Positions 14,971-34,846 of a DNA stretch of 64,000 nucleotides are shown piece after piece; positions within the stretch are counted from its first letter, which is position 1; each line of letters starts with the position of its first letter. The position numbers were made by a program, and so were the translations under genes. This stretch comes from a bacterium (GTDB lineage: Bacteria > RBG-13-61-14 > DATKZS01): NCBI GenBank assembly GCA_963674965.2, contig CAXXFL010000002.1:544001-608000 (forward strand), given 5' to 3'. Below the pieces are notes generated by a model, which was not told the origin of the DNA, did not search any database, and saw only the letters and a list, made by a program, of their open reading frames with translations.

Positions 14971-16164
14971 GTGACCATGGGTCTTATCGAGGATGGAGAA
15001 AAATACCTGGTCCAGAACTATGGACGGCTGAAGGTCGCCTTTACCGAGGGCAAGGGCGCCCGCTTATGGGACCAGACCGGCAAGGAGTACCTCGATTTCC
15101 TGGCCGGCATCGCCGTGACCAACCTGGGCCACTCGCATCCCAAGGTGGCCGAGGCCGTGGCGGCCCAGGCCCTGAAGCTCGTTCACACCAGCAACCTTTA
15201 TTACATCGGGCCCCAGGTCGAGTTGGCCCGCTGGCTGGTGGACCACTCCTTCGCGGACCGCGCCTTCTTTTGCAACTCGGGTACCGAGGCCAATGAGGCC
15301 GCCCTGAAGATGGCGAGGAAGTGGGGGGCCGAGAACAAGGACGGGGCCTTCGAGATCGTCGCGGCCGAGGATTCCTTTCACGGCCGCACCATGTTCAGCC
15401 TCGCGGTCACGGGTCAGAAAAAACACCAGAAGGGGTTCGCCCCCCTCGTGCCCGGCGTCAGGATCGTTCCCTATGGGGACGCGGCGGCGGTGGAAAAGGC
15501 CCTGACCGCCAAAACGGCCGCGGTCATCGTCGAGCCCATCCAGGGGGAGGGCGGAGTGCGGGTGCCGCCCGAGGGCTACCTCGCCGCGCTTCGGGAAATC
15601 TGCGACCGCGAGAAGGTACTGCTTATCTACGACGAGGTCCAGACGGGCATGGGACGGACCGGACGCCTGTTCGCTTACGAGGAGGCGGGCGCCCCGCCGG
15701 ATATCATGACCCTGGCCAAGGCCCTGGGCAACGGCTTTCCCATCGGCGCCACCCTGGCGAACGAAAAGGCGGCCTCGGCCCTCGGGCCCGGAAGCCACGC
15801 CTCGACCTTTGGCGGAAATTTCCTCGCCTGCGCCGCGGCCCTCGCCGTGGTCCGGGAGTTCGAGGAAAAGGACGTTCCCGCCATGGCCCGCGAGATGGGC
15901 CAATACTTGAGGGAGCGCCTTCAGGAGGTCGCGGCGGACCTCGACTGCGTCCAGGAGGTAAGGGGGAAGGGGCTTCTGCTGGGCATGGCCCTGGACCGGC
16001 CCGGACAGCCGGTGGTGAACGACCTGTTCGAGGATGGAGTCATAATAAACTGCACGGCCGAGACCGTGCTTCGTTTCGTTCCTCCCCTTACCATCACGCG
16101 GGAAGAGGTGGACGAGATGATACCCAAGCTGAGGGTTGCCCTCGAGAAGTTGGAGCGTTCCTGA
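14971..16164 (+). CDS. argD: Acetylornithine aminotransferase
   Basis: NSGTEANEAALK, SFHGRT, EPIQGEGG, DEVQTGMGRTG, LAKALG and HASTFGGN; lies between argB and argF. Confidence 0.93.
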   Translation: MTMGLIEDGEKYLVQNYGRLKVAFTEGKGARLWDQTGKEYLDFLAGIAVTNLGHSHPKVAEAVAAQALKLVHTSNLYYIGPQVELARWLVDHSFADRAFFCNSGTEANEAALKMARKWGAENKDGAFEIVAAEDSFHGRTMFSLAVTGQKKHQKGFAPLVPGVRIVPYGDAAAVEKALTAKTAAVIVEPIQGEGGVRVPPEGYLAALREICDREKVLLIYDEVQTGMGRTGRLFAYEEAGAPPDIMTLAKALGNGFPIGATLANEKAASALGPGSHASTFGGNFLACAAALAVVREFEEKDVPAMAREMGQYLRERLQEVAADLDCVQEVRGKGLLLGMALDRPGQPVVNDLFEDGVIINCTAETVLRFVPPLTITREEVDEMIPKLRVALEKLERS

Positions 16165-16190
16165 AGGGGAACGCGGGAAGGAGAGCCGCG

Positions 16191-17105
16191 TTGGCCGTGA
16201 AACATTTTATAGGCCTTGACGATTACAACCGCGATTCGCTGGACGGGCTTTTGGCCCGGGCGGCCGAGCTCAAGGCCGACCTGAAAAAGGGAAAGACCCA
16301 TAACGGGCTGGCGGGCAAAAGCGTGGCCCTCATCTTCGAGAAGCCCAGCACCAGGACCCGCGTCAGTTTCGAGGTGGGCGTGCATCAACTTGGCGGCTAC
16401 CCCCTTTTCCTCTCGGGCAAGGAGACGCAGCTTAAAAGGGGCGAACCCATCGCCGACACGGCCCGGGTGCTTTCCCGCTACGTGGACATGATCATGATCA
16501 GGACCCACGGACATGAGGACGTGATCGAGCTGGCGGAGAAATCGAGCGTGCCCGTTATCAACGGTCTCACGGACCTTTTGCATCCTTGCCAGATTCTGGC
16601 CGATCTATTGACCATGCGGGAAGTCGGTCTCGACCTGGACGATTGCTCGGTGTGCTACGTGGGCGACGGAAACAACGTGGCCAACTCCTGGATCAACGCC
16701 GCCGGCGTATTCAATTTCGACCTTCGGATCGCCTGCCCGGAGGGATACGATCCCAACGCCGGTCTCATGCGAAAGGCTCGCGAGGCGGGAGGACGCGTCA
16801 ACGTGTTTCGCGACTCCCTCGAGGCGGCTTCCGGCGCCGACGTCTTATACACCGACGTGTGGGTGAGCATGGGGCAGGAGGACGAGGTGGCAAGGCGCAA
16901 GGCCGCCTTCAAGGGTTTTCAGATCGGGATGGACCTGATCGACGCGGCCGCTCCCGAGGTCAAGGTCATGCATTGCCTGCCCGCCCACAGGGGCGAGGAA
17001 ATAACGGATGAAGCCATCGAGAGCGGGCACTCGATCGTATTCGACCAGGCCGAGAACAGGCTCCACGCTCAGAAATCCATCATGGAGTTTCTGGCGAAAG
17101 GATAA
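16191..17105 (+). CDS. argF: Ornithine carbamoyltransferase
   Basis: FEKPSTRTRVSF, HPCQ, GDGNNV and HCLPAHRGEE; TTG start at 16191 after an AAGGAGA SD, within the longer ORF 15321..17105. Confidence 0.95.
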   Translation: MAVKHFIGLDDYNRDSLDGLLARAAELKADLKKGKTHNGLAGKSVALIFEKPSTRTRVSFEVGVHQLGGYPLFLSGKETQLKRGEPIADTARVLSRYVDMIMIRTHGHEDVIELAEKSSVPVINGLTDLLHPCQILADLLTMREVGLDLDDCSVCYVGDGNNVANSWINAAGVFNFDLRIACPEGYDPNAGLMRKAREAGGRVNVFRDSLEAASGADVLYTDVWVSMGQEDEVARRKAAFKGFQIGMDLIDAAAPEVKVMHCLPAHRGEEITDEAIESGHSIVFDQAENRLHAQKSIMEFLAKG

Positions 17106-17116
17106 TAAATAAATTC

Positions 17117-18616
17117 ATGAACGAAGCGGAGAAAAAATCTTTCGCTCCTGACGATCTTCCTCTTGTCTGCGAGGGATTGGACCTCATGAGTCTCAACGTG
17201 ACCCCCGAGGAGGGCTTCCTCTTGTCCCGCCTTGACGGGACCACCTCGGTCGGGGTACTTTTTCGGTCGACCGGGCTGGGCGAGGAGAAGACCGCTACCC
17301 TTTTGGCCTCCCTCATGGCCAAGAACATCGTCATCATGAAGGGAGTGACCTATTGTCAGGACCGGCCCGGGCCGGAAAACGGGGACGGCCATGAGGCGGC
17401 AAGCCCCGAGGCCGGCGAAGATACGGATGAATTCGACGACGACGAGGCCGCCGGCGAGGAAGAAGGGGAGGATAATGGCTTAAGCGAGGGCGAAAATTCC
17501 CAGGTCTTGCGGAAACTGAAAATGGCGCTTAGAAAAAAACAGCTTCCCAAGGGCCCCGAGCTTTTGGCCATAGTGGAACAGACCTTTGTAAACCTCGAGA
17601 ACTTAAGCTATTATGACCTGTTGGGAGTTCCGGTCGCCTCCGAGTTCAAGGAAATAAAAAAGTCATACCTGAGGAGGACGAAGTCGTTTCATCCCGACAG
17701 GTTCTATAGAAACGCGGACAAGCAGCTCGTCAAGCACGTTCAGGAGATATTCAAGCAGCTTAATAAAGGATATAAAGTACTCGCGGACGCCGAGAAAAGA
17801 GGCGAGTACGACAAGTCGCTCGACGAGGAGGAAATGTGGCTCAAGCACGAGCTGGCCGACGAGGAGGAAACCATAACCACCAGCCGTACCAGGTCGGTTA
17901 AAGGCGATTCCTCCCCCTGGAAGCGGATCAGGGTGTCCAGGCAAAAACCCATCGAGGAGAAAACAAGAAAGAAAAAGAAAAAAGAGGAAAAACCAAAGGT
18001 CGAGGGACCCAAGCTGAAACTGGGGCTGAAAGACGGGAAGTCGGCCTCCCCCCTGCTCAAGAAGATTCACGAGATGAAGGAGAAAGAGCAAAAGACTTAC
18101 GACGAGCAGGCCGAGCGCTTCTATCGGGGGGCCATGGTGGAAAAAGACTCGGGCAATATTAACGCGGCGAGGAACAACCTCAAGCTGGCCCTTCAATACA
18201 GCCCGGGAAATAAAAAATACTTAGGGGCCGTCGAGGAACTTGAACATTTCGAGTCATCGAGAAGGGCCGAGACGAGCTTCAAGTCGGGCATGAAGGCCCA
18301 TGACGCCGGCGATCTGAAGCAGGCCCTGAAGGACTATCGCGAAGCGATAAGGTTGGGTTATGAAAATTCTCTGCTATATAATAAAATGGCCGAGTTGATA
18401 ATGGAGCTGGAAGGCAATTACGAACTGGCTCGCTCGCTCAGCCTCAAGGCGATCGAGAAGCAGCCCGAGGCCGTCGATTTCCGCATGACCCTGGCCAGGG
18501 CTTACAAGGGGCTGGGACAGAAGGCGGCGGCCATGGTTCAGTTTAATAAAGTATTGGAGATACAGCCGAAAAACAAGCTGGCAATCAAGGAGCTGAAAGC
18601 ACTAAAGCGCGGCTAG
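17117..18616 (+). CDS. J-domain (DnaJ-like) protein with C-terminal TPR repeats
   Basis: SYYDLLGV...FHPDRFY J-domain with HPD; TPR-like helices at the C-terminus; N-terminal TPEEGFLLSRLDG segment. Confidence 0.85.
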   Translation: MNEAEKKSFAPDDLPLVCEGLDLMSLNVTPEEGFLLSRLDGTTSVGVLFRSTGLGEEKTATLLASLMAKNIVIMKGVTYCQDRPGPENGDGHEAASPEAGEDTDEFDDDEAAGEEEGEDNGLSEGENSQVLRKLKMALRKKQLPKGPELLAIVEQTFVNLENLSYYDLLGVPVASEFKEIKKSYLRRTKSFHPDRFYRNADKQLVKHVQEIFKQLNKGYKVLADAEKRGEYDKSLDEEEMWLKHELADEEETITTSRTRSVKGDSSPWKRIRVSRQKPIEEKTRKKKKKEEKPKVEGPKLKLGLKDGKSASPLLKKIHEMKEKEQKTYDEQAERFYRGAMVEKDSGNINAARNNLKLALQYSPGNKKYLGAVEELEHFESSRRAETSFKSGMKAHDAGDLKQALKDYREAIRLGYENSLLYNKMAELIMELEGNYELARSLSLKAIEKQPEAVDFRMTLARAYKGLGQKAAAMVQFNKVLEIQPKNKLAIKELKALKRG

Positions 18617-18626
18617 GAGGATACTT

Positions 18627-20453
18627 ATGGGCAAGGTAATTGGAATAGACCTGGGCACGACTAACTCTTGCGTCTCGGTGGTCGAGAACGGGCAGCCGAA
18701 GGTGATACCGAACAAGGGCGGGTACAAGATCACTCCGTCCATGGTGGCCTTCGAGGAGGGCGGCCGGCGCCTGGTGGGCCATCTGGCCAAGCGGCAGATG
18801 GTGACCAATCCGAAGAACACCATCTACGGCACCAAGCGCCTGATCGGCCGGAAGTTCGATTCCCCCGAGGTCAAAAAGGCGCTGGCGTCGTATCCGTACC
18901 AGATCATCGAGGGACCCCATTACGACGTTCGACTCCTGGTGCAGGGCAACGAGTTCAGCCTTCCCGAGATAGGGGCCATGGTCCTGCAGGAGATGCGGAC
19001 CGTGGCCGAGGAATACCTGGGCGAGCCCGTGCAGGAGGCGGTGGTGACCGTGCCCGCTTACTTTAACGACAACCAGCGGCAGGCCACCAAGGACGCCGGC
19101 CGGATAGCCGGGCTCGACGTCCTGCGCATCATCAACGAGCCCACCGCCGCCGCCCTCTCCTACGGCTACGGCAAGAACATTGACCAGACCGTGGCCATCT
19201 ACGACCTTGGCGGGGGCACCTTCGACGTCTCGGTGCTCGAGATATCGGAGGGGGTCTTCGAGGTCCTTTCCACCGCGGGCGACACCTACCTGGGAGGGGA
19301 CGATTTCGACGACCGCATAATCGACCACCTGGCCGAGAGCTTCCAGCGGAACACGGGCGTGAACCTTCGCCGCGACAAGATGGCCCTCCAGCGGCTCAAG
19401 GACGTGGCCGAGAAGACGAAAATGGAACTCTCCGAGGTGGCCCAGAGCGAGGTCAACCTTCCCTTCGTGGCCATGGGTGAGGACGGTCCTCTCCACCTCA
19501 ACCTGGTGGTGACCCGCGAAAAGCTCGAGGAGATCACCATGGACCTCGTCGAGCGGACCCTCAGCATCTGCGACAAGACCCTCGAGGCCGGCAGTCTCAA
19601 GCCCGAGGACATCGACGAGGTCATACTGGTGGGCGGACAGACCCGCATGCCCCTGGTGGCGGCCAAGGTCGAGGAATTCTTCGGGCGGGCCCCCAGGAAG
19701 GGAGTGCATCCAGACGAGGTGGTGGCCATGGGCGCGTCCATCCAGGGCATGGTCCTGGCCCAGGCCGCCGAGGCCGAGGAAGGGGAAGACGACGAGGACA
19801 GGGACGAGCTTCTCCTTCTTGACGTCACGCCCATGTCCCTGGGCATCGCCACCTTCGGCGGCTTCTTCACCAGGATCATCGAGAGGAACACCACCATTCC
19901 CACCCACGCCTCCCATATCTTCACCACCGCCGCCGACAACCAGACCTCGGTCAAGATACTGGTGCTGCAGGGAGAGTCGGACCGGGCGGCCGAGAACGAG
20001 CTTCTCGGCGAGTTCATGCTCACGGGCATCCGTCCCGCCAAGCGCGGCGAGCCCGAGATCGAGGTGACCTTCGACATCGACGCCGACGGCATCGTCAGCG
20101 TCTCGGCCAAGGACCTGGACACGGGCCAGGAGCAGTCCATTACCGTCACCGCCAGCTCGGGCCTGACCGAGCAGGAAATCCAGTGGATGGTGGACGCCTC
20201 GAAGAACTACGAGGTCGAGCTCAAGTCCAGGGAGGAAATCGAGAAGGCCTGCCAGAAACTCGAGGGCATGGTCCTCAAGCTGGAAAAGGAACTGCACGGA
20301 AAAAAGGACGACCTGCCCCGCGAGCTGGCGAGCGCGGCCAAAAAAGCCATCGAGTCGTCCCGGCGGGCCATCGAGTTCGGCGATATGGCCGAGGTAAGGC
20401 GCTTCACCGACGACATCCCCTCCCTCATCGAGAGGGTCCAGTCCGGAGGATAA
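18627..20453 (+). CDS. dnaK: Hsp70/DnaK-family chaperone (probably a paralog)
   Basis: GIDLGTTNS, TVPAYFND, NEPTAAA, DLGGGTFDVS, LVGGQTRMP and IEVTFDIDADG; shortened C-terminus; no grpE nearby. Confidence 0.85.
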   Translation: MGKVIGIDLGTTNSCVSVVENGQPKVIPNKGGYKITPSMVAFEEGGRRLVGHLAKRQMVTNPKNTIYGTKRLIGRKFDSPEVKKALASYPYQIIEGPHYDVRLLVQGNEFSLPEIGAMVLQEMRTVAEEYLGEPVQEAVVTVPAYFNDNQRQATKDAGRIAGLDVLRIINEPTAAALSYGYGKNIDQTVAIYDLGGGTFDVSVLEISEGVFEVLSTAGDTYLGGDDFDDRIIDHLAESFQRNTGVNLRRDKMALQRLKDVAEKTKMELSEVAQSEVNLPFVAMGEDGPLHLNLVVTREKLEEITMDLVERTLSICDKTLEAGSLKPEDIDEVILVGGQTRMPLVAAKVEEFFGRAPRKGVHPDEVVAMGASIQGMVLAQAAEAEEGEDDEDRDELLLLDVTPMSLGIATFGGFFTRIIERNTTIPTHASHIFTTAADNQTSVKILVLQGESDRAAENELLGEFMLTGIRPAKRGEPEIEVTFDIDADGIVSVSAKDLDTGQEQSITVTASSGLTEQEIQWMVDASKNYEVELKSREEIEKACQKLEGMVLKLEKELHGKKDDLPRELASAAKKAIESSRRAIEFGDMAEVRRFTDDIPSLIERVQSGG

Positions 20454-20773: not shown

Positions 20774-20959
20774 GAGCCTCTTGCAAAAGTCCCGCTTTGG
20801 AGTGCGGCGGCTCGACGCCGCTTTTCTTCCGAGCGGCTTGACGCGAGGCTAGCCGTTGTATTCTTAGGCCTTGTCAAGCCAAAGCCATCGAAAGCGCTCT
20901 CAAGCGACCACAATCCAAAGCGGCTATGCCTCAAAGAAAGGGACTTTTGCAAGAAGCTT
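20774..20959 (+). mobile_element. 186-bp MITE, copy 1
   Basis: Terminal IRs AGCCTCTTGCAAAAGTCCC / GGGACTTTTGCAAGAAGCT (18/19), flanked by direct repeat GCTA (20770-20773, 20960-20963); second copy at 32718-32903. Confidence 0.85.
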
Positions 20960-21276
20960 GCTACATACATTTTTTCTCCACTTTTGAGAACAAGTTACAA
21001 ATTGTGTCCCTTTGGCAAAATATGATACTTCAAATCGTCTGGAGGACAGACTGCATTATTTCGCGGGACGCCCGCGGTTTACCCACCTTTCTTACATTTT
21101 ACCTACCCGTGTAATTTTCTTCATTCATATTGAGACCGGCCTGGCGGGGGCGGCAAGAAGATAAATACATTAATTAACCGATGCTTGCGCTTTCATTTCA
21201 CGGGTCGGCGCCGGGGTTGCTATTAAGAGGGAGTGAAAGGAAGAAACACTTTAGCCCCGAACCTGGGAGGTGAAAA

Positions 21277-24200
21277 ATGGAGCGTTTTATCAAGCCGGTC
21301 CTGAATCTAATCCTCTATGCCATTGCCGCTACGGTTTTTATCGGCCTTTGCGTCGCGGGCGCCCGGGCCGAGGAGGTCCCCGAGGTCGGATCGGACCCGG
21401 CGGCCAGGGCCGGGGCCCCCACCGGCTCGGTCAAGATGTCCCTCGAGCAGTATGAGGAGTTCATGAAAAAGGTGGAGGCGAAAAAAGAGGGGCCGGATAT
21501 GGGATCGCCGCCGGGGCCCGTGATCGAGAGCGTCCATATCGAGGCCGAGACCTCGGGCGGCCAGATCGAGGCGAGAGCGAAAGTCAAAGTCTACGCGCCG
21601 GGGAAAAATCCGGGAGCCCTGAGACTTTTCCAGGACTCTCCCGACTTCGCGGTCACCTCCTTTGAAGGCTCGGTCGAGAGCATGGCGCGTGACCCGGAGG
21701 GCAAGGGCTATTTCGCGCTTTTCGGGGAGCCCGGCCATCACGAGTTCTCCTACTCGATGAGCGCTTCCCTCAAGGACGCGGGCGACGGGCTAGAGGCGTC
21801 GCTTCCCATTCCCAAGGCCACCGCGGGATCGATCAGGCTGGTTCTGGACCAGGCCCGCTCCGTCCAGATAGTCCCCTCCTTCGGCGCGGAAGAGAAGGAC
21901 CTGGGGGAGGCGGTCGAGGTCTTCGCCCGTCTTTCGCCCACCGAGTCGGTCGCGATCCGGCTGGGCAAGGCGCCGTCGGAGCCTTACTCGTTCAGCCGCT
22001 CCGCATACGAGGCCGCGATCATCGAGGACGGGCTCTCGGTCTCGGCGCTGTTGGACCTGACCGTGCACTCGCGGGACGGGCGCGGCGTCAAGCTGGCCGA
22101 CGGCTCGGTGGCGCTCAGGTCGGTCACGGTTAACGGCTCTCCTTACCCGGTCAAGCTGAAAGACAAGGCCTTCGTGGCGGACGGCCTGAAAGCCGGGACC
22201 TACAAGGTGGCGGCCAGTTGGCTTCAGCCCATCAACGAGAGCCAGGCCTCGAGGTGGGTGGCGGTGCCCCTGATAGCCTGTCCCATCTCGAGCTTTGCCG
22301 CCTCGGCCCCCGGCGAGTCTCTCAACATGGAGATAGTACCCGGCCTGGCCCGGGTAGTGGACGCCTCGAAGGGCCGCACCACCACGCGGGTGAGCCTGCC
22401 CATGACCGACGAGGTCAAGATCGCGTGGACGGAAAAGCCCCCCGAGACGCGCAAGCTCAAGGCGGCCGAGGAGGAAGTCCCCCGGACCTACCTCGAGACC
22501 TCCTCGGTCATCAAGGTGGACGAGGGATTGATGTCCGTCGAGACCGAGCTTTCCTACTCCGTTTTGCGCGGCGAGATCGCCAAGGTTTCCTTTTCCCTGC
22601 CCAAGTCGGTCGAGGTGATGAGCGTGGAGGGAAGCTTCGTCAAGGACTGGGAGCAGGAGAACGAGGATGACGAAAGGACCTACCAGGTCTATCTGGACCG
22701 CAAGGTAAAGGGTGACTACAAGCTCCGGGTCTCCTATGAAGGGCTGCTCGAGGAGTTCCCGGCCGAAGCCATCGAGGCGCCCCGCCTGACGCCCCGAGAG
22801 GTGGAGCGCGAGAAGGGAGTGATATTTATCGAGCGCAGTCCGGACCTCGAGATCAAGACGGTGAAGACCGAGTCCCTCCGGCGCCTGGACGGGCAACGGA
22901 GCGGTGGAAGAAGCGCCCTTTACGCGCTCCAATACATCAAGGCTCCTTACGAACTGGTTCTTTCCGTGGGTTTGAAGCCGGCCCTTGATCCCGAGGTCCA
23001 CGTCGAGACCTCGACCCTGGTGACCGTGTCCGACAACGTCATATCCGCGGCGGCCAATCTGGATTATAAGGTGCTGAACGCGGGGGTGGACTCCTTTCGC
23101 CTCGGTTTTCCCGGCGACGTGAAAATCACGGCCATTCGGGGCAGGGACGTGCAGAGCCAGACCCGGACCAAGGAGGGCGATCGGACCGAGGTCCTGGCGC
23201 GTCTCGAGCGCCCGGCCATGGGCCAGTACCGGCTGTACGTCGAGTACGAACGGGCCCTGTCCCCGTCGGAGAAGGTGGCGGCGGTCCCCCTTGCCGATCC
23301 CATGGGCGTCAGCTCGGCCGAGGGTTTCGTGGGCGTCGCGGCCAGACACAACGTCGAGGTCCGGGACAAGGAGGAGCTGAACCTGCGCCAGATAGACCCG
23401 AGCCAGCTTAGGGGGGCCCTGTTCGACCTGTCCGAGAGTATGATCCTGCGCGCCTATTCCTACTCCTACATGTCCGGCGTGGACAAAAGGCCCGTCCTGT
23501 CCTACTCGGTCTTGCGCCATCAGGACGTGGCGGTGCAGGACGCCTATATAGACGAGGCCAGGTACCTGACCCTGGTGAGGTCCAACGGCTTCTCCATCAC
23601 CAAGGCCGTGCTGTCGGTGCGAAATAAAAACCGACAGAACTTAAAGCTCACGCTGCCGGAGGGTTCCGAGCTGTGGAGCGCCTTTTTGGCGGGCGAGCCG
23701 GTGCCCCCCGCTCGGGACGAGAACGGCGCCGTGCTCATTCCCCTGCCGCGCTCGGACCTGGGCTCGGGCGGGCGTCACGCCAACTTCCCCGTCGAGGTGG
23801 TTTACAAGACGGCCATCGACGAGATAGGGACCAAGGGCAAGCTGGACCTGGTCCTCCCCCGCGCCGACATCGTCGTGGGCAAAGCCGTGTGGCAGCTATA
23901 CCTTCCCCTGGACAAGTTCTTTATCGAGTTCGGAGGGTCCATGGGGGAGGGCATGATCGAGCAGAAGTCCGGCCGGGACGTGGCCGCCGAGTTGGGAGAG
24001 TTCGCCCTGTCCCTCTCGGGCAACTTTCTCAAGTTCCAGGCCAAGGCCAAACAGAGCGAGGCCAAGAGCAACCTGGGCGCGGTCTTCACCTCCCAGGCGG
24101 CGCACAAGGCTGAGTTCGGCCGCTTCGCCCGCGACTTCAAGGAGTCCGGCTGGGCCCCTGAGGGCAAGACTCAATACACCTACATCATGGGCTCGGACCG

Positions 24201-24786
24201 TATAGCGGGAATGAAGGAGGACCTTGGCGACATGCCCGGCATCGAGGGGGCCAGGGTGGACGACGACCACTTCCTGGTCCTGGCGGTGGGAAACGTGGAT
24301 AACGACTCCTTCCTCGATATCTGGGTCATCGACGAAAACAAGAAGCTTATAAACCTCGCCAACGACGCCACCGACTCCTATGACAAGCGCTTCGAGGAGT
24401 TCAAGGAAAAGGGATACTTCAACCAGTGGGACCTGGCCCAGATGGAGTACGTGCAGGAACACATGCGGCAATCGGAAATCCGCGGGCTTTTATCGCTTCG
24501 GATCGACGTTCCCACCAAGGGGCAACTGGTGAGGTTCGAGAAGCTCTTTCCCGGCGCCCAGGGGGAGGAACTGCGCGTGATGGCGAGCTACATGCCCGAC
24601 ATTATCGGCAAGGTCGCGAACGTTTTCGCCAAGGCCGTGGCCCTGGGCATCGCCGCGGGCCTTTTTGTTCTCGCGGCCCTGGCGGTCCGGCGGACGGAGA
24701 AGCTGGGATGGGTTAGACGACACTGGTGGCTCACCATTCTTATAGTGATCGCGGCGCTTATTTTGGCGCTCAGGCTGTGGGGATAA
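21277..24786 (+). CDS. Large exported/membrane-anchored hypothetical protein with internal ~170-aa repeats and an embedded pilin-like domain
   Basis: GGAGG SD, signal peptide ending ARA, two C-terminal TM helices, host-like codon usage. Confidence 0.85.
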   Translation: MERFIKPVLNLILYAIAATVFIGLCVAGARAEEVPEVGSDPAARAGAPTGSVKMSLEQYEEFMKKVEAKKEGPDMGSPPGPVIESVHIEAETSGGQIEARAKVKVYAPGKNPGALRLFQDSPDFAVTSFEGSVESMARDPEGKGYFALFGEPGHHEFSYSMSASLKDAGDGLEASLPIPKATAGSIRLVLDQARSVQIVPSFGAEEKDLGEAVEVFARLSPTESVAIRLGKAPSEPYSFSRSAYEAAIIEDGLSVSALLDLTVHSRDGRGVKLADGSVALRSVTVNGSPYPVKLKDKAFVADGLKAGTYKVAASWLQPINESQASRWVAVPLIACPISSFAASAPGESLNMEIVPGLARVVDASKGRTTTRVSLPMTDEVKIAWTEKPPETRKLKAAEEEVPRTYLETSSVIKVDEGLMSVETELSYSVLRGEIAKVSFSLPKSVEVMSVEGSFVKDWEQENEDDERTYQVYLDRKVKGDYKLRVSYEGLLEEFPAEAIEAPRLTPREVEREKGVIFIERSPDLEIKTVKTESLRRLDGQRSGGRSALYALQYIKAPYELVLSVGLKPALDPEVHVETSTLVTVSDNVISAAANLDYKVLNAGVDSFRLGFPGDVKITAIRGRDVQSQTRTKEGDRTEVLARLERPAMGQYRLYVEYERALSPSEKVAAVPLADPMGVSSAEGFVGVAARHNVEVRDKEELNLRQIDPSQLRGALFDLSESMILRAYSYSYMSGVDKRPVLSYSVLRHQDVAVQDAYIDEARYLTLVRSNGFSITKAVLSVRNKNRQNLKLTLPEGSELWSAFLAGEPVPPARDENGAVLIPLPRSDLGSGGRHANFPVEVVYKTAIDEIGTKGKLDLVLPRADIVVGKAVWQLYLPLDKFFIEFGGSMGEGMIEQKSGRDVAAELGEFALSLSGNFLKFQAKAKQSEAKSNLGAVFTSQAAHKAEFGRFARDFKESGWAPEGKTQYTYIMGSDRIAGMKEDLGDMPGIEGARVDDDHFLVLAVGNVDNDSFLDIWVIDENKKLINLANDATDSYDKRFEEFKEKGYFNQWDLAQMEYVQEHMRQSEIRGLLSLRIDVPTKGQLVRFEKLFPGAQGEELRVMASYMPDIIGKVANVFAKAVALGIAAGLFVLAALAVRRTEKLGWVRRHWWLTILIVIAALILALRLWG

Positions 24787-24830
24787 GCGGGTAAAGGGCT
24801 CGAGGCCGGCGGAAAGATCGGAGGTCTCCA

Positions 24831-25757
24831 ATGAACGAATGGGAAGCCGACATGCAAGGCAAGCGGGACGCCCACGAGGAAGAGGAAGCGATATTTGGTC
24901 TCGCGGACGCGGGGCGGGCCGCCATGAATAACCCGGATGACGAAGAGTGGATGGACTTCGAGAGCGCCGAGGCGATAAGGCGAGGCGAGCTTTCCGCCGA
25001 AAGGCGCCGGGCCTTTACGGAGTCGGCGTCCTTGTTCCTGGTCTTTCTCGGGATCATGTGGCTGATGGAGGGAAGCTGGATTCAGACCCTGCAGCTAAGG
25101 GCGGTGGGATGGAACTTTATCGCCCATCTCGTCCTGCTCTTCCTGCCCGTCGTCTCGATCATCGCCTCGCGTCGGCCGTCCGCCGACTTGGGCGTCAACC
25201 TGAAAGACCTGGCCAACCCGGAGGTCCGCAAGGTGATGAACCTGGCCGTGGCCGAGCTGGCCCTTATCTGGGCCGCCTTCATCATGGTCCCCGGCCTGGT
25301 AAGCGGCCTTCGGCCGTCCATCATCGTGCCTCCCGCTCACCTGGTCAGGCTGGACTGCGTTCCGGACGAAATCGGCCAAATGGCGGGGTACGCGCTCACT
25401 CTCGTTTTCATGACCTTTTTTTACGGGCTTGGAAGCGAGGTTTTTTATCGCGGAGCCATTCAGGGCGGGCTGAACCGGGCCTTTGGCAAACCCTGGCGCT
25501 TCCTTCGCGTCAACTTCGGGCCGGGCCTCCCCCTGGCCGCTCTTTTTTACGTGATCGGCCAGTCCTCGATAATCTATAACCCCTTTGTGAGCGAGCCCTC
25601 GACTTTTACGGCCGATCCCCTGGCGGTGGGCGTGACCGCGGGGGAGGGGTTGATACTCGGCTACCTTTACGAAAGGACGGGAGGGGTCCTCGCCCCGGCG
25701 GCCCTGCACGCGGCGGCGGGCATCCTTTTCTTCGGACTCGAGTTCCTGTCCATGTAA
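24831..25757 (+). CDS. CPBP/Abi (CAAX protease-like) intramembrane protein with degenerate catalytic motifs
   Basis: Multi-TM; SEVFYRGAIQ and GYLYERTGGVLAPAALH match the CPBP fold signature; GGAGG SD. Confidence 0.75.
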   Translation: MNEWEADMQGKRDAHEEEEAIFGLADAGRAAMNNPDDEEWMDFESAEAIRRGELSAERRRAFTESASLFLVFLGIMWLMEGSWIQTLQLRAVGWNFIAHLVLLFLPVVSIIASRRPSADLGVNLKDLANPEVRKVMNLAVAELALIWAAFIMVPGLVSGLRPSIIVPPAHLVRLDCVPDEIGQMAGYALTLVFMTFFYGLGSEVFYRGAIQGGLNRAFGKPWRFLRVNFGPGLPLAALFYVIGQSSIIYNPFVSEPSTFTADPLAVGVTAGEGLILGYLYERTGGVLAPAALHAAAGILFFGLEFLSM

Positions 25758-29854: not shown

Positions 29855-30412
29855 ATGTCATATATCGGCGCCAAAGATAGCGGGGCCATGCCCGACGATT
29901 TGAAACGAGTGGTGGATTTCCACGGGCATTTTTGTCCCGGCATGATGATCGGCTACCGGGCGGCCAAGGCCGGCCTCGAGATACTTGGCTCGGAGCGGGC
30001 CGAGGACGAGGAGCTGGTGGCCATTGTCGAGAACGACTCGTGCGCGGTGGACGCGGTGCAGGTCCTTACCGGGGCCACCTTCGGCAAGGGCAACCTCATC
30101 TTCAGGGACCACGGCAAGCAGGTCTTCACCTTCATGCTCCGGCCCTCGGGCAAGGCGGTGAGGCTGGCCCTCAAGGCCGGGGCCCTGGGCGGCGGCGAGC
30201 TCTCGAGGGACGAGAAGGCCGAGCTGCTTTCCACCCGGCCCACCGAGGAGCTTTTCGACGTCCAGCGAACCACCCTCGACCTCCCGGCCAAGGCCCAGAT
30301 AAGGAAAAGCGTCATCTGCGACTCCTGCGGCGAGCCGGTCATGGAAACCCGGACCATCGGGGTCAAGGGCAAAACCCTTTGCTTCCCCTGCGCCGGCAAG
30401 GACGCTGACTGA
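29855..30412 (+). CDS. FmdE family protein with C-terminal zinc finger
   Basis: FHGHFCPG, ENDSCAVDAVQ, TFGKGNL and CDSCGE..CFPC. Confidence 0.88.
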   Translation: MSYIGAKDSGAMPDDLKRVVDFHGHFCPGMMIGYRAAKAGLEILGSERAEDEELVAIVENDSCAVDAVQVLTGATFGKGNLIFRDHGKQVFTFMLRPSGKAVRLALKAGALGGGELSRDEKAELLSTRPTEELFDVQRTTLDLPAKAQIRKSVICDSCGEPVMETRTIGVKGKTLCFPCAGKDAD

Positions 30413-30675
30413 AGCCCCGAACGGAGCGAAGGTCCATAGCCCAGCGGTGGAGGACACGGGAGTTTACATTACCCTGGGGGTAGTTGAATAAATCCGGCCG
30501 ATCACTGAAAGCGCGGCGCTCCCCATTCAGGAAGACGGCCGTATTTTCCCCGGACCTTTCCTCATTTGCGCCGTCCCTCAGGACTCATTTATTTACCACT
30601 ATCTTTTCCCAGGGTTTCGGCCGCCGGTCGCGGCCTTCAACCATGGGCTATAGATCGCCGTCCCTGATGGAACTT
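30413..30675. repeat. Degenerate REP-like palindromic cluster with an inverted arm pair
   Basis: TCCATAGCCCAGCGGTGGAGG near the left end is an imperfect inverted repeat of CCTTCAACCATGGGCTATAGA near the right end; internal CCCTGGG/CCCAGGG and short GCCCCGAACGGAGC-type hairpins. Confidence 0.45.
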
Positions 30676-30799
30676 ATCGAAGGGCGGCCCGTCCGCTTTG
30701 GGATGAAGTGGATGATCTGATATGGTGGATAATGCCGGTTTGGAGTTTTTGGACTTTTTGTAATGAGGTCAGCGCTGACGGAAAGAAGGGAGGTCCCGC

Positions 30800-31225
30800 G
30801 TGAGAATCATAGCGGTAATATTTTGGGTAATCGCGGTCTCGTTGCTGGTTTACGCCCTGGTCACGGTCGACAATAGCAAGGACGTGGGAACGACCCTTCA
30901 GATACTGGGATTTTTCGCGCTTCTTATCCTGGGCGTTCTCTTTTGGGTCTCAGTGGGTGAAGATGGCCGGGACAGGGCCATGAAACTGGGCGAACCGCTT
31001 GAAGCCGTAATTATCGAGGTTGAGGACACGAGTATCTCGAGTCACGGCTTGCCTCAACTCAAGTTCACGCTTGAAGTGGCGTCGCCCGACTCGGGGACGG
31101 CCAGGATCGAATTAAAGGAGCGCGTTCCCATGAGCAAGCTCGGGAGCGTCAAAAAGGGCGAAAAGCTGGTGGTCAAGCGCGACCCGGAGGACGAAAGTAA
31201 AATCTACGTCGACTGGCAAGCCTGA
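30800..31225 (+). CDS. Hypothetical membrane protein (2 TM + OB-fold-like soluble domain)
   Basis: GGAGG SD, GTG start, two hydrophobic helices, C-terminal VVKRDPED..IYVD. Confidence 0.7.
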   Translation: MRIIAVIFWVIAVSLLVYALVTVDNSKDVGTTLQILGFFALLILGVLFWVSVGEDGRDRAMKLGEPLEAVIIEVEDTSISSHGLPQLKFTLEVASPDSGTARIELKERVPMSKLGSVKKGEKLVVKRDPEDESKIYVDWQA

Positions 31226-31352
31226 GAAGAAAGATTGGGTTTTCCTCCTCCCTCGGAGATTGGTATCGGGATTTCCCGCTTTATTAATGACCCGGACGGC
31301 TTGAAAAAACCGCCCGGGCCGTAATTCCCTCGACAAAAATCAAATAATTATA

Positions 31353-31522
31353 TCAATTCGAGGCGCAACGAAAACCTATATCATAATACTTGTAATCCGG
31401 GAATTCTCCGATCCTTTCCGACGCGCGTCCGCACTGGTTATCCCAACCGCCGCCGCGATATACGCGAAGCGTGCCCGACGTCGGCCCGGTCGGGTCGAGG
31501 GTCGGACTAACGCTATAATAAT
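31353..31522 (-). pseudogene. Orphan C-terminal fragment of an FGE-sulfatase/CLec-fold gene
   Basis: Encodes DYYSVSPTLDPTGPTSGTLRVYRGGGW...IGFRCASN*; the upstream part of ORF 31353..31757 lacks the RLPTEAEWE and GNxWEW motifs. Confidence 0.7.
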
Positions 31523-31832
31523 CCCTCACCCTCATGACGTTGCAGTTTCCGCAAAAGCCCGTCATGCGCCTCGGGATAAAGTAGGCCACCATGGCGACGT
31601 AAACCGCCATTGAGGCGTAATGCGCGACAAGGAGGGCTTTCGCGGCGTGGTCATTTGAGCGTGGCGCTATCCCCGGTGGATTCATGAATATTCCTTTTCG
31701 CGTTATTAAAGAGGTAATTATCACTTCGAACTGCTCCTTTGGATTGTATCCCGGCATGGCCCCTCGCGATCATTCGTGTTTATAAGCCAAGGGTAGCCCA
31801 TCGCGTTCACGCGCGGCCGGAGAAGCCGCGGG

Positions 31833-32270
31833 CTACGCTCCGTTCGCGAAGACGAATATAACGTTTAAAAGATATTTCCAGACAAAACCAAGGTAGGATC
31901 CATTTACGTTCGTCCATATTATGGCGGCGACTTTTCCGTCATCCTTGAAACAGCCCGCTATTCCAAAGATAAAGCTGAAAAAGGACAGCAGAACCGTGAC
32001 CGGAATGAGCGCGAAAAAGATTACAATTAGAGGCGCCAGGCCGTAGTATCCCCAATCAGCACATGACGCGTCCTCCTCCGCCGCCGCCCGGCATTTTGAG
32101 TCGTCCGGCTCGCAATGATACTCCTGAATTATGCTCTCGCGCTGGTTTTCAATTTCATGCGCATAGTAAAGGACCGCCGCCAGAGTTACGATAATATATC
32201 CCGCTATCAGGATCAGGTTTATCAGACCAAATGCGGACGCCAAATTCCCATATAGTCTTCTTGAACTCAT
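31833..32270 (-). CDS. Hypothetical membrane protein
   Basis: Three hydrophobic segments and a Cys-containing loop; ATG at about 32270 after GAGGAG; lower GC than the host genes. Confidence 0.55.
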   Translation of the reverse strand: MSSRRLYGNLASAFGLINLILIAGYIIVTLAAVLYYAHEIENQRESIIQEYHCEPDDSKCRAAAEEDASCADWGYYGLAPLIVIFFALIPVTVLLSFFSFIFGIAGCFKDDGKVAAIIWTNVNGSYLGFVWKYLLNVIFVFANGA

Positions 32271-32717
32271 CAAGCTCCTCACGGCCGCCCCAAAACGAGC
32301 GATCGATCAGGAGCTTACCGCCTGAATGTGAAGGAAATATGGCTAAAATAAGGAACGTCGCGGCGTGACGCGTCTTTTTTGCGACTCCCTCGCGGAGTTG
32401 GGAAAGGACTTCGCCCAACGGACTATTGCGCCCCAAGGCGAAAAAATGCCGGACGAACGAAAATTGCGGCGAGAAATCCCTTTTGGAATTACGATTTAGA
32501 TATGAAAAGAAGCGGGACTTAAGGAAATTAGAGGACTGGACGGTGATTTGCAACGGCCCCGAAAATTAGTGATCCGTGAGGAGCTTATTTTGGTACACCC
32601 GTCTCGCGTCGCAAGAGCCACACGGTTTTCATAAGAACCTTTGGGGGGTTCTTCGGAACCCCTCACGCGGCAATTAGAAACCTTGACGCATCTATCGGGC
32701 GTGTATTATATTGTAAA

Positions 32718-32903
32718 AAGCTTCTTGCAAAAGCCCTTTTCTTGGCGGCATAGCCGCTTTGGAGTGCGGTCGCTTGAGACCGCTTTCGATGGCCTTGGCT
32801 TGACAAGGCCTAACAATAAAACGGCTTGCCTCGCGTCAAGCCGCTCGGAAGAAAAGCGGCGTCGAGCCGCCGCACTCCAAAGCTGTGCTTTTGCAAGAGG
32901 CTC
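32718..32903 (-). mobile_element. 186-bp MITE, copy 2 (inverted relative to copy 1)
   Basis: Reverse complement aligns without gaps to 20774-20959 with 14 mismatches by hand count (~92% identity); no flanking duplication. Confidence 0.85.
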
Positions 32904-32941
32904 CTTCACCAATTAATTATCAGAAGCTCATGATTTTTTTC

Positions 32942-32970
32942 TTGACAAGCCGCGTCGATTATGCTAAATC
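32942..32970 (+). promoter_or_regulatory. Putative sigma70 promoter upstream of the structured region
   Basis: Perfect TTGACA (32942-32947) followed by TGCTAAAT in the -10 region; the -10 hexamer is imperfect. Confidence 0.45.
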
Positions 32971-32973
32971 AAG

Positions 32974-33411
32974 CGATTGATTGAATGAGTTGCCGGTTGA
33001 ATCGGCTTGTATGGTAAAGCTTTAGCTCACTGATTATTTTGTCCAATCGAGCCCCGGTTGATTTCTGGGCCGTAAGACTCTGGACGGCGCGTCGCTCCAC
33101 CCCGGATGGCGGCCGCTAGGACAGGGTCTTACCGCCGAGAAATTATAACTTTTTTGGGGAGAGTAGCGGGGAGGATTCCGGCCTGAAGGGACGCGCGTTT
33201 ATCTTGGCGTGGGCCGAAATCTCCCCGCGATAAAAACAGCGCGGGCATAACGGTCCTTTCTTGAAGTAGATTATTGGCGTAAACTGGCGGATACATTAGC
33301 CATTATAGGCCGATTTCCGCGAGGAAGCTTTCAAGCCGTACCCCCCGTCACTCGGGAGTAAGTCGTACCCGAATGATACGAGCTTCCATTTGCCGCGACA
33401 AGCAAGTCGCG
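32974..33411 (+). ncRNA. Candidate structured ncRNA or long 5' leader (unassigned family)
   Basis: Consecutive hairpin domains; G-U pairs favour the + strand; no ORF of 60 aa or more in the ORF track. Confidence 0.4.
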
Positions 33412-33430
33412 CGTGGCGGAGTTTTCGATC

Positions 33431-34846
33431 ATGAAGGGTAGACATTCTTATCTTGTTGTATTAACATATATTTTAATTTCGACTTGCCTTATAATTCCCT
33501 CCTCCAGGGCGTCCGTTCCCCAGTCAACGCTGGGAAGATACTATGACCTGGTCGAGGTCCCGGGCGACATGCTGGATTCAGCCGCTGGACATGAGATAAA
33601 GAGTCTGGCCCTGTACGCCAAAAAGAACGGCGCCTGGGATCAGGTCCTTGTTCAGGTTGACGAGAAAACGGAGAAGGGAGACTTTGTCCTGCCAAAGGGA
33701 CCGGAGGCAAACGGGTCCGAGGCTGACGGCAAGTTCGACGCGCGGGACGTGATTGCCTTTATGGCGCGTGACGCCGGCGAGAAGGCGGCCGAGGGCGAGA
33801 TTCCGGACGGAGTCTCGGCCATGGATGAAATTGAGCTTAAAGACCCGGACTCGGGAAAGAGCGCCTGGATATACCTGGCCGTCCATGACGGAAACGCGCC
33901 CGAGTGCAAGGCCGAGCCGGTTGCGAAGTTGATAGACACGGGCGGGGTATTCAATTTCCGCTTTCCCAGCTACGGCTATGACGGACTGATTAACGCCAAG
34001 GAAAAGAAGGACACGCCCACCATATTCATCAATAAGCTTTGGGTGACGAAAAGGGCGGGGGGCAACGAGCGGAACATCCTGGACCGCCAGAAGATACGAG
34101 GCTCGATCACTTTTCTGGGCGGCGTTATCGAGGTCCCCATCAACGAGAGCATCGTGAGCGGGGGAGTATCGGCGTACAAGTCGGGCCCGGTCAGGATAAT
34201 AACCCATTCCCAGATGTACCCGCTTTTTCCCATGGGGATCAAGGGTCCCAAGTTTTATATCGACTCGATAATGTCGGACACCCTGACCCTGACCACGACC
34301 ACCATGTCCGTTCCCTTTGATCCGGGGTCGCTCATCCACGACATGACCCTGGCCTTTTCCACCGACCTCACGCCCTCGGCCAAGGGCATGCTTTACTATA
34401 ATTCCCGGAACCTGGAGGGAGTCGAGATCGACGGCAAGATGGACGACAAGGAGAAGGGGCTGGACAAGGGCAAGGACGAATGGCGCATGACCACGGGGCC
34501 GCAGGGAACGCAGATACAGTTCACCCGCTTCGATCCCAAGTTCCTGAAAAACGGCGAGGCGTCCTCCACATATAACGACGACGAGACCGATGAAAACCCG
34601 CCCGAGAACTTTCCCGGCGACGTGGGGGCGGCGGCCGACCAGATAGTGATCAAGAGCCTGGAGGCCGGCTCCTATAAGATACACACCTTCGGCTGCGTGC
34701 CGGAGAATTTCTACCAGGGACGAGAGCTGGACAAGGAGCACCTCGAGGCCGTGCTGGCCGTGCCCAACCGGCCCATCTCGATCATGGCCTCGGGCAAGGA
34801 AATCAAGAATCAGGGCGGGACCCCAAGAGGCGTGATCGAAAAATAG
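33431..34846 (+). CDS. Exported hypothetical protein
   Basis: Signal peptide MKGRHSYLVVLTYILISTCLIIPSSRA; GGAG SD before the ATG at 33431; host-like codon usage. Confidence 0.8.
   Translation: MKGRHSYLVVLTYILISTCLIIPSSRASVPQSTLGRYYDLVEVPGDMLDSAAGHEIKSLALYAKKNGAWDQVLVQVDEKTEKGDFVLPKGPEANGSEADGKFDARDVIAFMARDAGEKAAEGEIPDGVSAMDEIELKDPDSGKSAWIYLAVHDGNAPECKAEPVAKLIDTGGVFNFRFPSYGYDGLINAKEKKDTPTIFINKLWVTKRAGGNERNILDRQKIRGSITFLGGVIEVPINESIVSGGVSAYKSGPVRIITHSQMYPLFPMGIKGPKFYIDSIMSDTLTLTTTTMSVPFDPGSLIHDMTLAFSTDLTPSAKGMLYYNSRNLEGVEIDGKMDDKEKGLDKGKDEWRMTTGPQGTQIQFTRFDPKFLKNGEASSTYNDDETDENPPENFPGDVGAAADQIVIKSLEAGSYKIHTFGCVPENFYQGRELDKEHLEAVLAVPNRPISIMASGKEIKNQGGTPRGVIEK

Follow-up and report, generated by a model that had tools for sequence, protein, structure and literature searches.

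What is the globular head of a type IV pilin doing inside a 1169-residue envelope protein, without the N-terminal region that makes a pilin a filament subunit? The question is raised by a stretch of 64,000 nucleotides of bacterial DNA (GenBank assembly GCA_963674965.2, contig CAXXFL010000002.1, positions 544,001–608,000; GTDB lineage Bacteria, RBG-13-61-14, DATKZS01), hereafter the window, in which a first-pass annotation had reported pilin-like residues near the C-terminus of one large open reading frame (ORF), here P0001. The quoted residues are present in this ORF (window 21277–24786), at residues 915–1030 (nucleotides 24019–24366). Residues 899–1032 of P0001 were confirmed to constitute a complete type IV major-pilin module, and the feature is a domesticated pilin head in an undescribed scaffold family. 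The layout of P0001 is given below, where A2 is an alignment of 52 single-module scaffold relatives, bearers are the five aligned proteins that carry the head, 8tj2 is the PDB entry of the Myxococcus xanthus type IV pilus, and pLDDT is the predicted local distance difference test score.

21277–24786, plus strand: the whole P0001 gene, encoding the 1169-residue envelope protein in a single open frame with a stop-free translation.
21277–21369, plus strand: hydrophobic N-terminal signal peptide (residues 1–31), ending in ...AGARA before EE; hydropathy window at residues 4–31, model helix at residues 5–29.
21520–23937, plus strand: tandem β-sandwich scaffold (residues 82–887), all-β in the model with pLDDT mostly ~90, without a Pfam family.
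23890–23907, plus strand: WQLYLP family motif (residues 872–877) at the upstream edge of a variable linker; W872 and P877 are nearly invariant or invariant in A2.
23971–24027, plus strand: degenerate α1-N remnant (residues 899–917, GRDVAAELGEFALSLSGNF), aligning to α1-N positions ~10–24 of the 8tj2 PilA and to the NF041775 profile from position 26.
24028–24372, plus strand: pilin head (residues 918–1032), an α1-C helix and antiparallel β-sheet, recognized by PF14245, identity to the genome's own PilA and Foldseek; it takes in 24019–24366.
24373–24492, plus strand: post-head helices (residues 1033–1072; model helices 1037–1044 and 1053–1068) within the insertion, present in all five bearers and poorly conserved (19–50%).
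24493–24597, plus strand: conserved family β-hairpin (residues 1073–1107, LxIxVP...FEKLFP; strands 1083–1090 and 1100–1107), with P1079, G1082 and Y1105 nearly invariant in A2.
24601–24783, plus strand: two C-terminal transmembrane (TM) helices (residues 1109–1140 and 1146–1169) with the basic loop RRTEKLGWVRRH between them, from hydropathy; model helices 1108–1139 and 1150–1168.

Is the segment a genuine pilin head? The Pfam family PF14245 (Pilin_PilA) matches residues 920–972 with 37.3 bits in the whole of P0001 and 45.9 bits in the excised segment (cut-off 28.5). The NCBIfam model NF041775, which describes Myxococcus-type PilA, aligns with residues 907–973 (E = 5e-14) over profile positions 26–92 of 214, and its equivalog level is not reached (52.8 versus 400 bits). 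The genome's own pilins were identified with PF14245, and the P0001 segment is 47% identical to the 149-residue PilA of the same genome across the entire globular domain. Twenty-seven columns are invariant across five head sequences, including N-x-D-x-D-x3-D-x-W. Against the sequences in the PDB, the segment has a single match with E < 0.1, namely PilA of 8tj2 (E = 1.3e-12), and a profile of 45 head and pilin sequences matches the PilA chain 8tj2_C with E = 9.5e-48; the PilA motifs that the first-pass annotation had named (NFIKFQARSKQSEAKTNL... and GN.DN....D.W.I) are reproduced in the alignment with this protein. An AlphaFold2 model of residues 895–1075 (pLDDT 82.7, predicted template-modelling score, pTM, 0.73) consists of a 46-residue helix (model residues 8–53) followed by antiparallel strands (74–135). 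Among the Foldseek matches to this model, 8tj2_A of the M. xanthus type IV pilus ranks first (E = 3.4e-6, probability 1.00), with most of the remaining high ranks taken by other type IV pilins. The pilin fold, a long α1-C helix packed on an antiparallel sheet, is thereby present in the predicted structure of the module, and the first refuting outcome set by the annotation, the lack of any profile or structural match to type IV pilins, did not occur.

The features that are missing lie mostly at the N-terminal end of the module. When P0001 is aligned with at least 40 pilins, the G/FTLIE segment is deleted, leaving no prepilin cleavage site and no Glu5, and a regular-expression scan of P0001 found no prepilin motif. 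The hydrophobic α1-N helix has lost about its first 13 residues. The remnant at residues 899–917 has a mean hydropathy of 0.28, compared with 2.75 for the first 19 residues of α1-N in the genome's own mature PilA, and the maximum over all 19-residue windows within residues 890–1075 is 1.17. The head contains no cysteines (those of P0001 are at residues 25 and 335 only), whereas the genome's own PilA has four. A disulfide-bonded C-terminal D-region, a feature of most pilins, though not all, is not found in the P0001 head. According to a study of the M. xanthus pilus (PMC11046646), α1-N anchors pilins in the inner membrane and interacting α1 helices build the pilus core. With this anchor and core-former gone, the P0001 module should therefore be unable to polymerise by the normal pilus route. 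Because the class III signal, Glu5 and the hydrophobic α1-N are all missing, P0001 is not filed as a pilin. Pfam, Foldseek, the alignments and hydropathy are thus in accord with what had been proposed from the sequence: a true pilin head that has lost its prepilin site and hydrophobic helix and, with them, normal entry into a pilus.

The head was described at first as part of a surface protein, a location that the remainder of P0001 does not bear out. The N-terminal signal peptide, whose cleavage site was inferred without a dedicated predictor, resembles those of the P0001 relatives, the compared N-termini of which have general secretory (Sec)-type AxA sites and no consistent lipobox. A lipoprotein reading based on Cys25 was rejected, since Leu precedes the cysteine and the relatives show AxA Sec-type sites. 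In the full-length model (pLDDT 82.2, pTM 0.39), an N-terminal hydrophobic helix (5–29) is followed by a short helix, an all-β region (82–887), the pilin module, helices (1037–1068), the hairpin (1083–1107) and two hydrophobic helices; the relative arrangement of the domains is uncertain because of the pTM of 0.39. By hydropathy, two C-terminal hydrophobic segments are present in all five bearers, and the head ends ~80 residues ahead of the predicted inner-membrane anchor. Pfam and NCBIfam scans of P0001 found no outer-membrane barrel, secretion or sorting domain. The genome has two secretins, so the organism is presumably a diderm. With its Sec signal, two C-terminal hydrophobic helices and no outer-membrane feature, P0001 is predicted to be periplasmic and anchored in the inner membrane through a C-terminal helical hairpin.

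How the head entered this protein can be traced through the linker in which it lies, measured in A2 from W872 (WxxYLP) to P1079 (LxIxVP). The linker is 203–215 residues long in the five bearers (P0001, P0002, P0007, P0008 and P0009), 35–64 residues in 41 other relatives and 101–141 residues, mostly charged, in the remaining six, so that 5 of the 52 aligned proteins, against 47 with linkers of 35–141 residues, have the insert in a large membrane-tethered scaffold, as the annotation had envisaged. The alignment shows the pilin module to be an insertion of ~200 residues in a variable linker just ahead of the membrane anchor. An exhaustive HMMER search returned 4695 relatives of P0001 at E ≤ 1e-3 and 801 at E ≤ 1e-30; among the 149 other representatives listed, only the four other bearers match P0001 through the head to residue 1124 or beyond. 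PF14245 recognizes the heads of P0007 (36.1 bits) and P0009 (36.9 bits) and is sub-threshold for P0008 (24.9 bits), and a custom hidden Markov model (HMM) of the head finds all bearers at E ≤ 1e-50. A metagenome scan added the head-bearing fragment L101 (32 bits) and the genomic context of P0008. Full-length bearers occur in only two of 40 related genomes, G009 (same order) and G012 (same class). A word-based search with the head retrieved P0001 and P0002 only and overlooked fusions that the other searches recovered, and it therefore says nothing about how rare the fusion is.

Heads are 45–53% identical across the orthologs. Between P0001 and the distant P0007, P0008 and P0009, identity is 45–46% in the head, 28–39% in the scaffold, 19–28% in the post-head helices and 22–25% in the TM region, making the head the best-conserved region in all three, a sign of purifying selection on it. 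P0007 and P0009 also retain a hydrophobic remnant of 12–14 residues and Pro22. Phylogenetic analysis of 55 heads places four of the five from scaffold proteins in one cluster (support 89/82); P0008 and two TM–head–TM proteins of this genome are nearby with unsupported placement, and all are outside the canonical pilin clade. A single clade for the five is not rejected by the approximately unbiased test (p = 0.885). The tree is consistent with, although it does not prove, a single old capture of a pilin head by the scaffold, and the captured module may have come not from PilA itself but from a head protein that had lost its signal before.

Such signal-less heads are common in the genome. A six-frame census of 16,392 ORFs of at least 100 residues, with heads recognized at E ≤ 1e-4 and prepilin motifs by regular expression, gave 18 head ORFs, four with the motif and 14 without it, P0001 included. 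The pilus and secretion machinery of the genome comprises one prepilin peptidase, 14 matches to T2SSE-type ATPases, the two secretins and at least four ORFs with a prepilin motif. The thirteen motif-less head ORFs other than P0001 are anchored by other TM segments. They include the following (C numbers denote contigs of this genome).

C6:51161–51949: motif-less head ORF.
C6:51984–52751: motif-less head ORF.
C6:458108–459211: motif-less head ORF.
C4:194088–194903: motif-less head ORF.
C7:901081–901761, minus strand: motif-less head ORF.
C7:406227–406709, minus strand: motif-less head ORF.
C4:379524–380114, minus strand: motif-less head ORF.
C1:659132–659596, minus strand: motif-less head ORF.
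C2:12664–13128: motif-less head ORF.
C2:542716–543561: motif-less head ORF, ending ~440 bases before the first base of the window.

Their architectures vary. Two tandem proteins of 256 and 263 residues begin with two hydrophobic segments, continue with the head and end in a TM; a 227-residue protein has the head flanked by one TM on each side; in a 368-residue protein, a cytoplasmic domain with CxxC...CxxC is linked through a single TM to the head; Zn-ribbon/Pro-rich proteins of 272 and 282 residues (Zn-ribbon/DUF4190-like) combine two TMs with the head; and several short proteins have atypical N-terminal helices. In G012, three ORFs of 395–466 residues consist of two TMs, the head and a YkuD L,D-transpeptidase domain (PF03734, 71–75 bits), and a fourth joins the pilin module to a large N-terminal domain.

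L109 1–1398, minus strand: G012 head–YkuD fusion.
L110 23–1252, minus strand: G012 head–YkuD fusion.
L111 3–1187, minus strand: G012 head–YkuD fusion.
L107 1891–4056, plus strand: G012 ORF of 722 residues, with a 550-residue N-terminal domain and, at the C-terminus, a pilin module in which α1-N is partly retained.

Judged from these sequences, this lineage shuffles signal-less pilin heads as modules. One pilin relative is labelled by its source as coming from 'Candidatus Schekm...'.

Pilin-like modules also occur elsewhere in the scaffold family. An HMM made from a segment first noticed in P0004 detects an internal pseudopilin segment in 31 of 163 scaffold-family proteins, 21 of these matches extending over essentially the whole HMM with E ≤ 1e-33. 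The proteins concerned (P0010–P0042, P0086, P0099, P0130, P0143 and others) span 1500–2600 residues, mostly 2100–2600 with two scaffold modules; where a taxon is given it is Verrucomicrobiota, and their source names include 'magnesium transporter', 'type II secretion system protein' and 'general secretion pathway protein G'. In these proteins the scaffold leads into a TM, after which come a short basic loop (RRGW/FxG), a hydrophobic helix resembling that of pilins and, last, MLLPALSKAK...NNLKQIG. Glu5 is retained in a few of the modules, and P0143 and P0010 keep an internal prepilin-like site, G-x4-E, which raises the question of whether internal processing takes place. Residues 1103–1201 of P0018 match the T2SSG domain (88 bits), and residues 978–1166 of P0013 resemble Amuc_1098, an outer-membrane protein of type IV pili (E = 3.7e-27, without reaching the family cut-off). 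Since the position and the pilin subtype differ from those in P0001, the scaffold family and pilin modules have been joined independently at least twice.

The scaffold family itself has no Pfam or NCBIfam model and no informative name among the sampled members, and its protein atlas clusters are annotated as 'hypothetical protein' only. P0001 is a full-length member with the motifs RN..RQ, WxxYLP and LxIxVP...F.KLY and the C-terminal TM; N783, Q787, W800 and P877 are invariant in A2. Foldseek relates the P0001 model to ribophorin I/OST1, integrin α legs and α2-macroglobulin. With VIA-align, residues 233–388 match the N-terminal β domain of M1 aminopeptidases (Z = 15, root-mean-square deviation, r.m.s.d., 2.8 over 151 residues) and residues 401–750 match ribophorin I (Z = 14.5, r.m.s.d. 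~20). The ribophorin I and M1 aminopeptidase matches are a resemblance of fold only. In the relatives P0003 and P0006, a LysM domain is inserted in a loop of the last β-sandwich, at the equivalent of P0001 residues ~826–836, ~50 residues ahead of the pilin insertion site. LysM domains bind peptidoglycan, and the proximity of the two sites indicates that this end of the scaffold repeatedly acquires envelope-binding modules. The genome also encodes two shorter scaffold paralogues in tandem (754 and 778 residues; C5:431926–436523, L019 5927–8191 and 8188–10524) without a pilin head or Pfam family, and similar tandem pairs are found in the relatives G002, G004 and G012.

Does the gene neighbourhood indicate a function? 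Among 80 loci of single-module relatives found with a 12-sequence alignment (Myxococcota, Bdellovibrionota, Proteobacteria, Acidobacteriota and others), a membrane protein of ~868 residues is encoded directly upstream in 60 (adjacent and on the same strand in 49), and an extracytoplasmic function (ECF) sigma factor further upstream in 28. The upstream membrane protein has an anti-sigma-like N-terminus; genes of this conserved unit are, for example, L040 4446–7049 and 7131–9932 and L065 4934–5563, from the set L021–L100. A tblastn search with the ~868-residue protein found nothing corresponding to it in the P0001 genome, and a profile comparison gave no relation between it and the scaffold family (probability 0.7%). 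This typical operon is absent at P0001, the upstream genes in the window being those of a DnaJ-domain/tetratricopeptide repeat (TPR) protein (499 residues) and an Hsp70 (608 residues), on the same strand at 17117–20453. A terminator-like hairpin follows the Hsp70 gene (20804–20821), and the promoter and terminator scan was otherwise uninformative; a σ54-like −24/−12 site at 21206–21221 with two mismatches was discarded as being at chance level (20 matches versus 19.5 expected). A CPBP/Rce1-like intramembrane protease (24831–25757) starts 45 bases past the P0001 stop. None of the DnaJ/TPR, Hsp70 and CPBP neighbours was seen in the contexts recovered for the orthologs. At the P0008 locus (L102 4535–7603, minus strand), a histidine kinase and a σ54-dependent response regulator are upstream of, and divergent from, the pilin-bearing gene. 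Response regulators of this type control pilA in other bacteria, and the proximity may be a coincidence. Farther upstream in the window, a 594-residue ORF (15321–17105) has ornithine/aspartate carbamoyltransferase domains at residues 294–590 only; its true start is probably further downstream, or it overlaps another gene. Rfam had no match in the window, no tandem repeat was found at 30000–34000, and no RNA data set was listed as containing the stretch.

What, then, could the head do in P0001? We tentatively propose a docking module that does not polymerise and that lies on the periplasmic side of the inner membrane. There it would be level with the heads of unassembled pilins; without α1-N and Glu5 it would be neither extracted from the membrane nor polymerised, and so would not be a pilus subunit. 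As a pilin mimic it could serve in docking or localisation by binding a recogniser of pilin heads. Candidate partners are pilins, other head-bearing membrane proteins of this organism, and periplasmic components of the apparatus for type IV pili or type II secretion, and such binding would tether the β-sandwich scaffold to the partner sites. Recurrence speaks in favour of docking, as the head is reused as a module and the scaffold family and pilin-like modules are found together repeatedly; the conservation of the head and the presence of pilus and secretion machinery in the genome also count for it. In the alignment with the 8tj2 PilA, K30, K37 and E53 are retained in the P0001 head and K48, D55, R70 and R73 are not; the three retained residues correspond to ones that link neighbouring subunits of the M. 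xanthus pilus through salt bridges (PMC11046646).

Several observations weigh against this proposal. Variants of K37 and E53 destabilise the M. xanthus pilin (PMC11046646), and the conservation of these two residues could accordingly stem from folding and not from an interface; since the variants lose stability, retention of the salt-bridge residues is weak evidence. For the topology of P0001, hydropathy and the model are the sole evidence. Of the 80 single-module loci, just one has a pilin-like gene within 8 kb, so the scaffold family as a whole is not obviously pilus-associated. The four bearer contexts, Hsp70/DnaJ and CPBP protease (P0001), aminotransferases (G009), histidine kinase and σ54 regulator (G012/L102) and a spermidine-synthase/TPR protein (L101), share nothing with one another and have no pilus link. 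With P0001 as the query, a full-length bearer is absent from four genomes of the window's own family, and the protein is therefore dispensable. Fusion of the head to unrelated enzymes would suit a generic spacer or anchor just as well.

This last point leads to the main alternative, which we consider somewhat unlikely: the head would be a stable membrane-proximal periplasmic spacer or oligomerisation domain, shuffled among inner-membrane proteins without any link to pili, that lengthens or stiffens the linker of P0001. Fusions to YkuD transpeptidases, to Zn-ribbon/DUF4190-like proteins and to the 550-residue domain, together with the TM–head–TM proteins, agree with such a role, as do the charged 101–141-residue segments that fill the same linker elsewhere and the lack of a pilus gene context. 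A spacer would not by itself explain why the head is better conserved than the scaffold in the three distant orthologs, when the post-head helices, which would make an equally good spacer, are poorly conserved (19–50%), or why pilin-like modules recur in the scaffold family across distant phyla.

An extension of the docking proposal that we regard as unlikely would make the whole scaffold family an accessory of type IV filaments, with the heads as a targeting code that recruits the scaffold, L,D-transpeptidases and Zn-ribbon proteins to pilins or to the bases of pili or pseudopili and couples envelope remodelling or signalling to assembly; the P0001 head would then be a non-propagating terminal 'subunit' that docks the scaffold at the pilus base. 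It is improbable that the head, together with its α1-N remnant, is a terminal, non-propagating component of a filament, i.e. a cap, anchor or stopper at the base or tip of a pilus or pseudopilus. The hydrophobic remnant and Pro22 of P0007 and P0009 and the retained α1-C salt-bridge residues would fit such a component, and large tip proteins (PilY1/PilC and CpaL) are known in other systems (PMC13533445). The class III signal, Glu5 and a membrane-spanning α1-N are nevertheless missing, the two TM helices tether the head C-terminally to the inner membrane with a polarity opposite to that of a pilin, and there are no minor-pilin or pilY1 genes among the neighbours of P0001.

The first-pass annotation had also considered an adhesin or a decoy for pilus-binding phages. 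All that speaks for a surface-displayed role is that phages often use pilin heads as receptors and that such heads are frequently adhesive, and no result of the analysis supports it; we judge it very improbable, because the head is predicted to be periplasmic, beside the inner-membrane anchor, in a presumably diderm organism with secretins, the Pfam and NCBIfam scans of P0001 list no domain for an outer-membrane barrel, secretion or sorting, and the N-termini of the family show no consistent lipobox. A chimeric assembly or decaying pseudogene fusion has a negligible probability, as the head-in-scaffold architecture is repeated in P0002, P0007, P0008, P0009 and the fragment L101 from other assemblies, the frame is intact and the head conserved, there is no G+C anomaly over the insert, and Logan contigs of runs X1 and X2 (runs of one sample, possibly the source sample; X3 and X4 cover small parts of the stretch only) each contain window 23600–24900 within one 8583-base piece with 0 differences. 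Misassembly, which the annotation had named as a possible source of error, is hence not supported, five representatives sharing the insertion.

What defines a pilin is its N-terminal signal together with its hydrophobic helix, and the head has been treated as a passenger that decorates the filament. In the present lineage the head alone is kept under selection and, within one candidate phylum, shuffling has carried it into at least five further protein contexts. If these heads bind pilins or the pilus machine, they would be a novel means by which periplasmic functions, e.g. peptidoglycan cross-linking by YkuD, are brought to type IV filaments, and would give a first handle on an unannotated scaffold family with thousands of members. 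If they do not, a filament subunit would still have been domesticated as a generic periplasmic domain. The earlier statement that no protein of this architecture has been described stands as far as our full-text literature searches (supplements excluded) go, which turned up no account of a pilin head that lacks its signal and lies within another protein; databases, on the other hand, hold many related fusions that have gone unrecognised (pseudopilin segments in 31 of 163 scaffold proteins, 14 motif-less heads among 18, and the head–YkuD proteins).

Among known proteins, M. xanthus PilA (8tj2; PF14245, NF041775) is the best match in both sequence and fold and shares the α1-C and head family and the C-terminal GN.D.D...D.W.I. 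The P0001 module differs from it in having no class III signal peptide, Glu5, hydrophobic α1-N or cysteines/disulfides; its head is smaller and closer to the 149-residue pilins of its own lineage, and it is internal (residues 899–1032 of 1169) and followed by membrane helices. The modular type IV pilins PilB and PilC of Streptococcus sanguinis likewise combine a pilin module and a large non-pilin module in one chain, but their pilin module stands at the N-terminus, retains the class III signal and polymerises, so that the extra module is carried on the pilus (10.1101/2021.01.27.428410; PMC9934059). P0001 is the inverse, with an internal, signal-less and membrane-tethered pilin module as the passenger. 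PilY1/PilC and the minor pilin-like CpaL/TadG are large proteins that engage filaments through a pilin-like domain or by fold complementation; their genes accompany those of minor pilins, and the proteins occupy the tip of the fibre (PMC13533445). P0001 is anchored C-terminally in the membrane and has no pilin genes nearby; the Pfam and NCBIfam scans, without a dedicated structural comparison, revealed no relation in sequence between P0001 and these proteins and listed no PilY1 family. With ribophorin I/OST1 and the N-terminal β domain of M1 aminopeptidases, P0001 shares, at the level of fold, a tandem β-sandwich architecture ending in a membrane anchor, whereas it has neither a sequence relation to them nor a catalytic domain; given the high multi-domain r.m.s.d., only the domain type is shared. 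Another parallel is provided by the Verrucomicrobiota giants with a DUF1559/GspG-like module, in which the same scaffold family is combined with a module of the pilin superfamily near the membrane. There, the module follows a TM and a basic loop, keeps its own hydrophobic helix and belongs to other pilin subfamilies in proteins with two scaffold modules, whereas the P0001 head precedes the anchor and has no hydrophobic helix; because of these differences in head order and hydrophobic helix, the two kinds of fusion are separate events.

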